Origin: Gammaproteobacteria bacterium
GTDB lineage: Bacteria > Pseudomonadota > Gammaproteobacteria > Eutrophobiales > Eutrophobiaceae
DNA: 64,000 nt
NCBI GenBank assembly: GCA_016179185.1
Contig: JACORW010000101.1
Location: 2,204-66,203 of the forward strand
Direction of reading: 5' to 3'
In this document: positions 26,695 to 27,055 of the stretch, piece by piece
Layout of the letters: each line of letters begins with the position of its first letter
Numbering within the stretch: position 1 is the first letter of the stretch
The notes under the pieces: generated by a model
Databases searched by the model: none
Seen by the model: the letters and a program-made list of their open reading frames with translations, nothing else
What the model was told of the DNA's origin: nothing
Made by a program: the position numbers and the translations under genes

Positions 26695-27055
26695 CAGATC
26701 GCGGCCGGCCGAAGGCCGGCCCCACAAAAGCCATCCCATATTCTGGCAACTCTTGTGGGGCCGGGTTTACCCGGCTAAAGGCTCGCCGGCATGATGCCGG
26801 CCCCATATAAAGTCATCCCATATCCTGGCAACTCTTGTGGGGCCGGGTTTACCCGGCTAAAGGCTGGCCGGCATGATGCCGGCCCCACAAAAAGCCACCC
26901 CATATCCTGGCAACTCTTGTGGGGCCGGGTTTACCCGGCTAAAGGCTGGCCGGCATGATGCCGGCCCCACATAAAGTCATCCCATATCCTGGCAACTCTT
27001 GTGGGGCCGGGTTTACCCGGCTAAAGGATGGCCGGCATGATCCCGGCCCCACAGT
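26695..27055. repeat. tandem array (about 4.4 units, period 82-83 bp) of composite REP family 1 units, inside the T2SS operon between gspN/C and gspD
   Basis: Repeating gtggggccgggtttacccggctaaaggctggccggcatgatgccggccccaca + aaagccatcccatatcctggcaactctt. The inter-repeat segments are near-identical to each other, so this is a tandem duplication rather than a CRISPR array. Confidence 0.9.

Follow-up and report, generated by a model that had tools for sequence, protein, structure and literature searches.

A tandem array of inverted REP pairs between xpsN and gspD in the type II secretion gene cluster of an uncultured gammaproteobacterium

Position and layout of the array

The junction between xpsN and gspD was found to contain a tandem array of paired REP elements, which are selfish palindromic repeats; the presence of the array at this site was confirmed as real and not due to chance. 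The array is interpreted, with a probability of about 0.75, as a cluster of RAYT-associated REP elements with the architecture of REPIN clusters and of BIME-2, arising from the dynamics of the repeat family. The sequence shows that an A/B heterodimer of REPs entered a short xpsN–gspD spacer directly past the xpsN stop codon, and that the pair, together with its own linkers of 8 and 28 nt, was then copied in tandem to give four units and one extra REP. The array belongs to a genome-wide REP family, with a transposase gene in the same window (the whole 64,000-nt stretch of DNA analyzed). The behavior of this family accounts best for the array being here, better than any requirement of type II secretion.

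Tandem Repeats Finder (TRF) reported a period of 82 bp at positions 26715–27053, with 4.1 copies, 94% matches, no indels, and a score of 608. In a repeat search the copies were spaced exactly 82 bp apart, and numerous inverted-repeat arms were listed both inside single units and from one unit to another. When the TRF result was combined with the catalogue of REPs, the whole cluster covered 26703–27053 (351 bp) and comprised nine REPs, or about 4.3 units counting the terminal REP. The initial annotation had described a composite REP-pair tandem array between xpsN/gspC and gspD, with 4.4 copies at 26695–27055; the description was borne out and the extent was close. The 70-bp gap that it gave for this junction was wrong, as the distance from the xpsN stop to the gspD start is 440 bp (26624–27063).

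Each 82-bp unit consists of two REPs in inverted orientation, with two hairpin subtypes alternating. In minus-strand order the cluster reads A1-s-B1-L-A2-s-B2-L-A3-s-B3-L-A4-s-B4-L-A5, where s is the 8-nt linker and L the 28-nt linker, which can form a hairpin by itself; the four units occupy 26726–27053. The xpsN stop codon TAA (27066–27064) is followed by a 10-nt spacer, CCGCCGGTAC (27054–27063, minus strand), as read from the sequence, and then by the head of the first REP, A1 (TGTGGGGCCGGGATCATGCCGGCC; 27030–27053, minus strand), in which a G variant widens the loop. Next come B1 (TGTGGGGCCGGGTTTACCCGGCT; 27000–27022, plus strand), A2 (TGTGGGGCCGGCATCATGCCGGCC; 26948–26971, minus strand), B2 (26918–26940, plus strand), A3 (26866–26889, minus strand), and B3 (26836–26858, plus strand). 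A4 (26784–26807, minus strand) has the head TATGGGG and an altered final stem base, and is followed by B4 (26754–26776, plus strand). The terminal REP A5 (26703–26726, minus strand) is out of the 82-bp register, carries a different loop, TGTGGGGCCGGCCTTCGGCCGGCC, and has a predicted hairpin energy of −19.2 kcal/mol. Apart from the 10-nt spacer, the only non-REP part of the gap is a unique 79-nt leader (26624–26702, minus strand), which runs from the array to the GTG start of gspD and holds the single AT-rich patch of the gap (AATTAATGCGGGTATATAC).

The array is wholly extragenic. Its period is no multiple of three, and the ORFs inside it are interrupted and reach at most 42 aa, the exception being the first 33 codons of a plus-strand ORF of 144 aa (26955–27389), which continues antisense through xpsN.

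The whole type II secretion (T2SS) gene cluster, including xpsN and gspD, lies on the minus strand. The xpsN/gspC-like gene (27064–27723, minus strand; 219 aa) is the last of a tightly packed gspG-H-I-J-K-L-M-N block, in which neighboring genes overlap or are at most about 5 nt apart. Its product has a precomputed match to PF28060 (XpsN), the NCBIfam models XpsN (47 bits) and GspC_delta (37 bits) both scored below cut-off, and the gene directly follows GspM/XpsM (NF040576, 119 bits). The secretin gene gspD (24470–26623, minus strand; 717 aa) was identified by TIGR02517 (470 bits) and by the Pfam Secretin, Secretin_N, and N0 domains; the exact protein was also called independently in the Logan contig L047. 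Both neighbors are thus those named in the initial annotation. Past gspD, in the same orientation, follow a 123-aa ORF, a 2285-aa S8 subtilase, gspE, gspF, a 131-aa ORF, and a 1193-aa M4 protease. The array therefore stands in mid-cluster, with gspE (ATPase) and gspF (membrane platform) located downstream of it, like gspD.

Repeat family, duplication history, and occurrence elsewhere

The 11-mer REP head TGTGGGGCCGG was present in 29 copies in the window, compared to 0.12 expected, a number reached by none of 100 shuffles. The elements are 24 nt long and GC-rich, with stems of 6–8 bp. Subtype A, read in the sense direction on the minus strand, has the form TGTGGGGCCGGC-ATCAT-GCCGGCC with the loop ATCAT, and subtype B lies in the opposite orientation, as the reverse complement of TGTGGGGCCGGGTTTACCCGGC on the minus strand. 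Further clusters were located at 171–311, 1429–1767, 2136–2297, 2797–2907, 33281–33506, 36106–36196, 41374–41398, and 58977–59035; they are made up of A and B subtypes, always in opposite orientation. Intact copies carry the tag GTGG (TGTGGGG), a variant and not the conserved GTAG tetranucleotide that RAYTs recognize and cleave. The head-to-head REP arms are 15 nt long and 93% complementary across the 28-nt linker.

A gene for a REP-associated tyrosine transposase (RAYT; 2261–2770, minus strand; 169 aa) was identified by NF047646 REP_Tyr_transpos (150.4 bits, cut-off 80), by Pfam Y1_Tnp (3.9e-11), and by a match to the solved structure of E. coli TnpA-REP (PDB 4ER8, 7.5e-8). It is flanked on one side by an 87-bp × 1.9 array of A/B pairs at 2135–2297 and on the other by a second 87-bp × 1.9 array at 2795–2960. 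Since the gene is bracketed by the same A/B pairs, it is regarded as part of a RAYT/REP system and, judged by its layout, this is the defining RAYT/REP arrangement apart from the GTGG tag. The region 2135–2960, with the gene and both arrays, can be described as a "REPtron", and the RAYT ORF enters the REP at 2274–2297 before its stop. A short plus-strand ORF at approximately 1881–2123 ends in …APRTYGIQIGVRY*, much as a TonB-dependent receptor does in its C-terminal barrel strand; the ORF looks truncated, has REPs around it, and may be a gene remnant.

Several REPs of the window begin shortly past stop codons, at 10 nt for xpsN, 9 nt for the gene ending at 33271, 14 nt for that ending at 59050, and 16 nt for that ending at 36089. 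The stop codon at 41385 falls inside a REP (41374–41398), and the pair at 58977–59035 is also located between two co-oriented genes.

The four units of the array differ at 8 of 82 columns, with 2–7 pairwise differences. Units 1 and 3 form the closest pair (two differences), and two columns alternate A-B-A-B. The s and L linkers were common to all four units, while all other REP clusters of the window have different linkers, which points to growth of the array by local tandem duplication of one inserted pair with its linkers rather than by repeated insertion. The proposal of local amplification made in the initial annotation agrees with this result. The path probably led from one to two to four copies, through unequal recombination or slippage between REPs, as is modestly suggested by these patterns, which involve few differences between units. 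No compensatory change between units was observed, as none of the eight variable columns was paired. The variable positions include stem positions of A1 and A4, where pairs are broken and uncompensated, so the pattern resembles drift rather than selection on structure.

Relatives were searched with GspD as the query in one genome per species (GTDB representatives), which yielded 45 loci. The best relative reached 64% amino acid identity, and all belonged to uncultured Gammaproteobacteria or more distant groups. Where XpsN homologues could be recognized, their genes immediately preceded gspD, and the gap between the two ranged from −8 to 241 bp; larger negative gaps at three loci probably result from an over-extended gspD start in the scan. 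The REP head was absent from all 45 GspD loci. After subtraction of the REP cluster, the window gap amounts to 89 nt, which falls within the range of the relatives. A recent and lineage-specific insertion is the best explanation suggested by this comparison.

One of the relatives (L007, GspD 55% identical) carries a different, MITE-like element in its own xpsN–gspD spacer, at 5774–5970. The element measures about 175 bp, is bounded by terminal inverted repeats of 14 bp (GGGTGTGATTCAAA…TTTGAATCACACCC), and has hairpins in its interior. Its presence means that the spacer was colonized independently, and this would fit a permissive landing place.

No relative was found when metagenomes were searched with the XpsN query; the exact XpsN and GspD proteins had one other occurrence, in SRA sample SRR12113390. 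The head-to-head REP pair pattern was found at 51 metagenome loci, many with the same A/B subtypes and some chance-like. In one of them (L074), a RAYT region showed 70% identity over 606 nt. Tandem arrays of REP pairs were observed at at least 10 of the 51 loci, with periods of 74–137 bp (mostly 118–137) and up to 3.8 copies, the copy numbers often being limited by the contig end. These arrays lie just past gene ends, and those with both flanks on the contig are between convergent genes. Local amplification is thus routine for this REP family.

The array represents an undescribed REP/RAYT family of an uncultured gammaproteobacterium, marked by the GTGG tag and two alternating hairpin subtypes, which forms tandem pair arrays, here amid a secretion gene cluster. 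Beyond annotation the array matters little; repeat clusters of this kind are well known in bacteria.

RNA structure and comparison with known REP clusters

For the transcribed strand of 26600–27080, the predicted minimum free energy was −242.9 kcal/mol, compared to −197 ± 7 kcal/mol for shuffled sequences (z = −6.4), and no shuffle equaled it. The opposite strand gave a similar result (z = −5.9). Single A and B hairpins were predicted at −12 to −19 kcal/mol, one unit at −41.5 kcal/mol, and the head-to-head B-L-A dimer at −44.7 kcal/mol; A1 was the weakest copy (−13.3 vs. −16.7 kcal/mol). The stable RNA structure claimed in the initial annotation is in line with these predictions.

Searches for known signals gave little. 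An Rfam scan of 24000–30000 (E ≤ 1) returned two chance-level matches, none of them in the array. The IHF consensus WATCARNNNNTTR was absent from the array and occurred twice elsewhere in the window, compared to 1.5 expected. No intrinsic terminator was detected on the minus strand in 26300–27400 and no hairpin is followed by a U-tract, so the array is not an intrinsic terminator. Within the gap, the minus strand contained no sigma-70-type promoter, and when the gap and the entire 19.5-kb cluster were scanned for promoters and terminators, the matches did not exceed those expected from shuffled sequence; the promoter scan covered sigma-70-type sites. The array transcript contains 106 G and 90 C and is nearly fully paired, and would therefore be a poor canonical Rho loading site. 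As no decisive Rfam, IHF, promoter, or terminator signal emerged, function is argued by analogy only.

The closest functional counterpart considered was REP325 of E. coli, which in our measurement consists of 5.8 copies of a 100-bp unit with 96% identity in the 657-bp yjdM–yjdN gap, starting 14 nt past the yjdM stop. The corresponding values for the window array are 4.1 copies of 82 bp with 94% matches in a 440-bp gap, starting 10 nt past the stop. Both are composite tandem units with two palindromic-unit subtypes in alternating orientation, both are situated between co-oriented genes, and both have neither an IHF site nor a U-tract. They differ in the number of units (12 in REP325 vs. nine) and in sequence, which proved unrelated on side-by-side reading: REP325 is built of Y/Z2 units with a GTAG-type head, whereas the window array has the head TGTGGGG. 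The neighbors of REP325 are non-essential, while essential secretion genes lie downstream of the window array. REP325 has been reported to stabilize the upstream yjdM mRNA, to cut yjdN expression approximately 8–10-fold, and to act as a partial, partly Rho-dependent terminator, the effects of E. coli REPs being strongly context-dependent and sometimes absent (preprint 10.64898/2026.03.23.713779). The function of REP325 was thus measured in E. coli, whereas the window array is known from its sequence alone.

In comparison with the BIME classes of E. coli, the BIME-2 architecture was recovered, as A-s(8)-B-L(28) is repeated four times and followed by a final A, with the two subtypes in opposite orientation. 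The Y/Z2 unit sequences and named linker motifs of BIME-2 were not present, which indicates the same architecture in another family. BIME-1 (RIB/RIP) has the IHF consensus in its long linker, and the window array does not.

REP clusters are also known inside operons. Newbury and co-workers reportedly found in 1987 that intercistronic REPs at malE–malF and hisJ–hisQ protect the upstream segment from 3′–5′ decay, giving upstream-biased expression. Those loci carry one to three REPs and were tested experimentally, whereas the window holds a four-unit tandem array to which a role is assigned by comparison.

Two further groups of clusters share the layout. In tandem REPIN clusters of P. fluorescens SBW25 the basic unit is likewise two inverted REPs, the clusters adjoin a RAYT gene, as at 2135–2960 of the window, and the largest consists of four REPINs and one extra REP, exactly the layout of the window array (PMC3116915). 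The SBW25 REP sequences differ and the units are longer, with the largest cluster exceeding 700 bp (PMC3116915); moreover, the window pair combines two stem/loop subtypes as a heterodimer, unlike the SBW25 REPINs. Di Nocera et al. (2013, PMC3733652) describe the large clusters of the GTAG-tagged REP superfamily as dimers, heterodimers among them, that are "reiterated in tandem" together with DNA flanking them. Members of this superfamily and the window REPs, compared at the superfamily level only, are both short GC-rich stem-loops with a conserved tetranucleotide tag at one end, form head-head and tail-tail dimers of both homo- and heterodimeric type, and flank RAYT genes; they differ in the tag (GTGG in the window vs. 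GTAG).

Co-transcription of gspG-N with gspD was assumed, as these genes are on the same strand and consensus promoter and terminator signals were absent. If the genes from gspG to gspD form one transcript, the 351-nt cluster would fold as a near-continuous stack of GC-rich hairpins. By analogy with the E. coli clusters, the most likely effect, at slightly less than even odds, would be that this stack acts as a barrier to 3′–5′ exonucleases, stabilizing gspG-N, and causes a partial loss of readthrough into gspD and beyond. With the first REP only 10 nt past the stop codon of xpsN, ribosomes could also be slower to terminate translation of XpsN. The mRNA protection and attenuation suggested in the initial annotation correspond to the known behavior of intra-operon REP clusters in E. 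coli and are a reasonable analogy (10.64898/2026.03.23.713779). If gating of the secretin, ATPase, and protease genes were shown, the "terminator plus stabiliser" model of REP325 would extend to a distant lineage and to an essential machine built of many proteins. In our view, any such effects on expression would be tolerated by-products and not a selected device.

Alternative explanations and neighboring features

One alternative explanation of the array is a translational brake on XpsN, in which the first REP, lying so close to the stop codon, would stall terminating ribosomes, leading to mRNA cleavage or trans-translation and to less XpsN. The GGCCGG stem begins approximately 15 nt past TAA, and the distances of 9–16 nt at other REPs of the window are similar. 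According to a summary in PMC12306157 of Liang 2015, translation of the upstream gene in E. coli can be down-regulated by a REP if fewer than 16 nt separate it from the stop codon; this rule was established in E. coli only. The position of the weakest copy is also unfavorable, as it is A1 that comes first, and this explanation was considered unlikely.

A further alternative is that the array ends the gspG-N transcript nearly completely and that the 79-nt leader contains a separate promoter for gspD. The one AT-rich patch in the gap (GGGTATATACTT) falls within this leader, the xpsN–gspD spacers of several relatives (e.g., L006, L035, and L002) are AT-rich with −10-like strings, and REP clusters are able to terminate transcription (10.64898/2026.03.23.713779). 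However, the lack of a sigma-70-like promoter on the minus strand of the gap and of a U-tract after any hairpin speaks against such a boundary, and termination by REPs in E. coli is only partial. The proposal therefore appears distinctly unlikely.

The initial annotation had suggested that the array sets the stoichiometry between the pseudopilin/assembly-platform genes and the secretin. In its strongest form, this would be a selected regulator, kept to set the ratio of the upstream pseudopilin and L-M-N products to the secretin, with copy number as a tuning knob. Several observations would suit such a device. The eight genes ahead of the array are translationally coupled and the array fills the first real gap behind them, the predicted RNA structure of the array is very stable, and REP325 exerts a comparable dual effect inside an operon (10.64898/2026.03.23.713779). 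In addition, Bertels and Rainey (2011; PMC3116915) proposed that ordered clusters may have specific roles. The idea is complicated, however, because gspE and gspF are also located downstream of the array, so these essential genes and the two giant protease genes would be attenuated as well. The array is missing from every related junction examined, which marks it as lineage-specific, the substitutions between units break stem pairs without compensation, and similar arrays of this family are found at many unrelated gene ends. For these reasons a selected regulatory function was disfavored and given only a slight chance, and the stoichiometry role was weakened.

A related variant would be an attenuator co-opted within this lineage, in which gain and loss of 82-bp units tunes transcription past the gspG-N block; this reading is quite improbable. 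If it were true, the tuned targets would be gspD, the giant protease genes, and gspE/F, and secretion settings would be heritable and reversible with promoter and protein unchanged.

A role at the DNA level, as a protein-binding site (IHF, gyrase, or HU) or nucleoid organizer, has been proposed for E. coli BIMEs, of which BIME-1 binds IHF and BIME-2 binds gyrase. The window array contains no IHF consensus and a role of REP325 in chromosome compaction is disputed by recent data, so that the chance of such a function here was judged very slim.

Finally, the array or its copy number could have resulted from mis-assembly of dispersed REPs. Both Logan contigs from SRR12113390 (n = 2) break inside the array, one from each side, and the copy number therefore rests on one assembly. 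However, these contigs (the end of L001 and the start of L047), which come from an independent assembly, match the array exactly at its two edges, down to variants specific to single units. All four units have substitutions of their own, and the array linkers are found nowhere else in the window. An artefact is barely credible in view of these results. Readings as a CRISPR-like locus, an integron attC array, or a satellite were rejected, since the whole 82-bp unit is repeated without variable spacers or cassettes and the REP family is dispersed.

In practical terms, arrays of this kind fragment short-read assemblies; with both Logan contigs ending in the array, the operon could be split into two contigs. 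Most metagenome arrays of the family were also located at contig ends.

Additional features were noted in and around the secretion cluster. The region 7012–24405 (minus strand) has an unusual gene order; the S8 subtilase carries many accessory domains, the M4 protease is thermolysin-like, and the 982-aa protein that follows the M4 protease has no Pfam match. The giant proteases probably represent cargo whose genes are embedded in the operon for the machinery. The N-terminus of GspD, RRTVISLFLGAGIVCGCQ (26560–26623, minus strand), resembles a lipoprotein signal with a cysteine, which suggests a lipidated, possibly pilotin-independent secretin. Lipidated, pilotin-independent secretins have been described for the XpsD type.

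In the divergent region that separates gspG from a plus-strand gene at 32537, upstream of gspG, the sequence GGGGTCAGACCCC is repeated 3.2 times with a 13-bp period (32366–32450), together with several repeats of the GTTAAC/GATTAAC type; these may represent a second palindromic repeat family or operator sites. A GAC/GAT repeat of about 17 codons, rich in Asp, was located at 35509–35614, at the 3′ end of the plus-strand ORF 35116–35622. Toward the end of the window, (AGCTACA)n at 63161–63190 faces its inverse at 63275–63305, and the resulting hairpin encloses the start of the ORF 63222–63563. A second such pair, (AGTCACA)n at 63570–63592 and its inverse at 63618–63649, is followed by a T-run and appears terminator-like.
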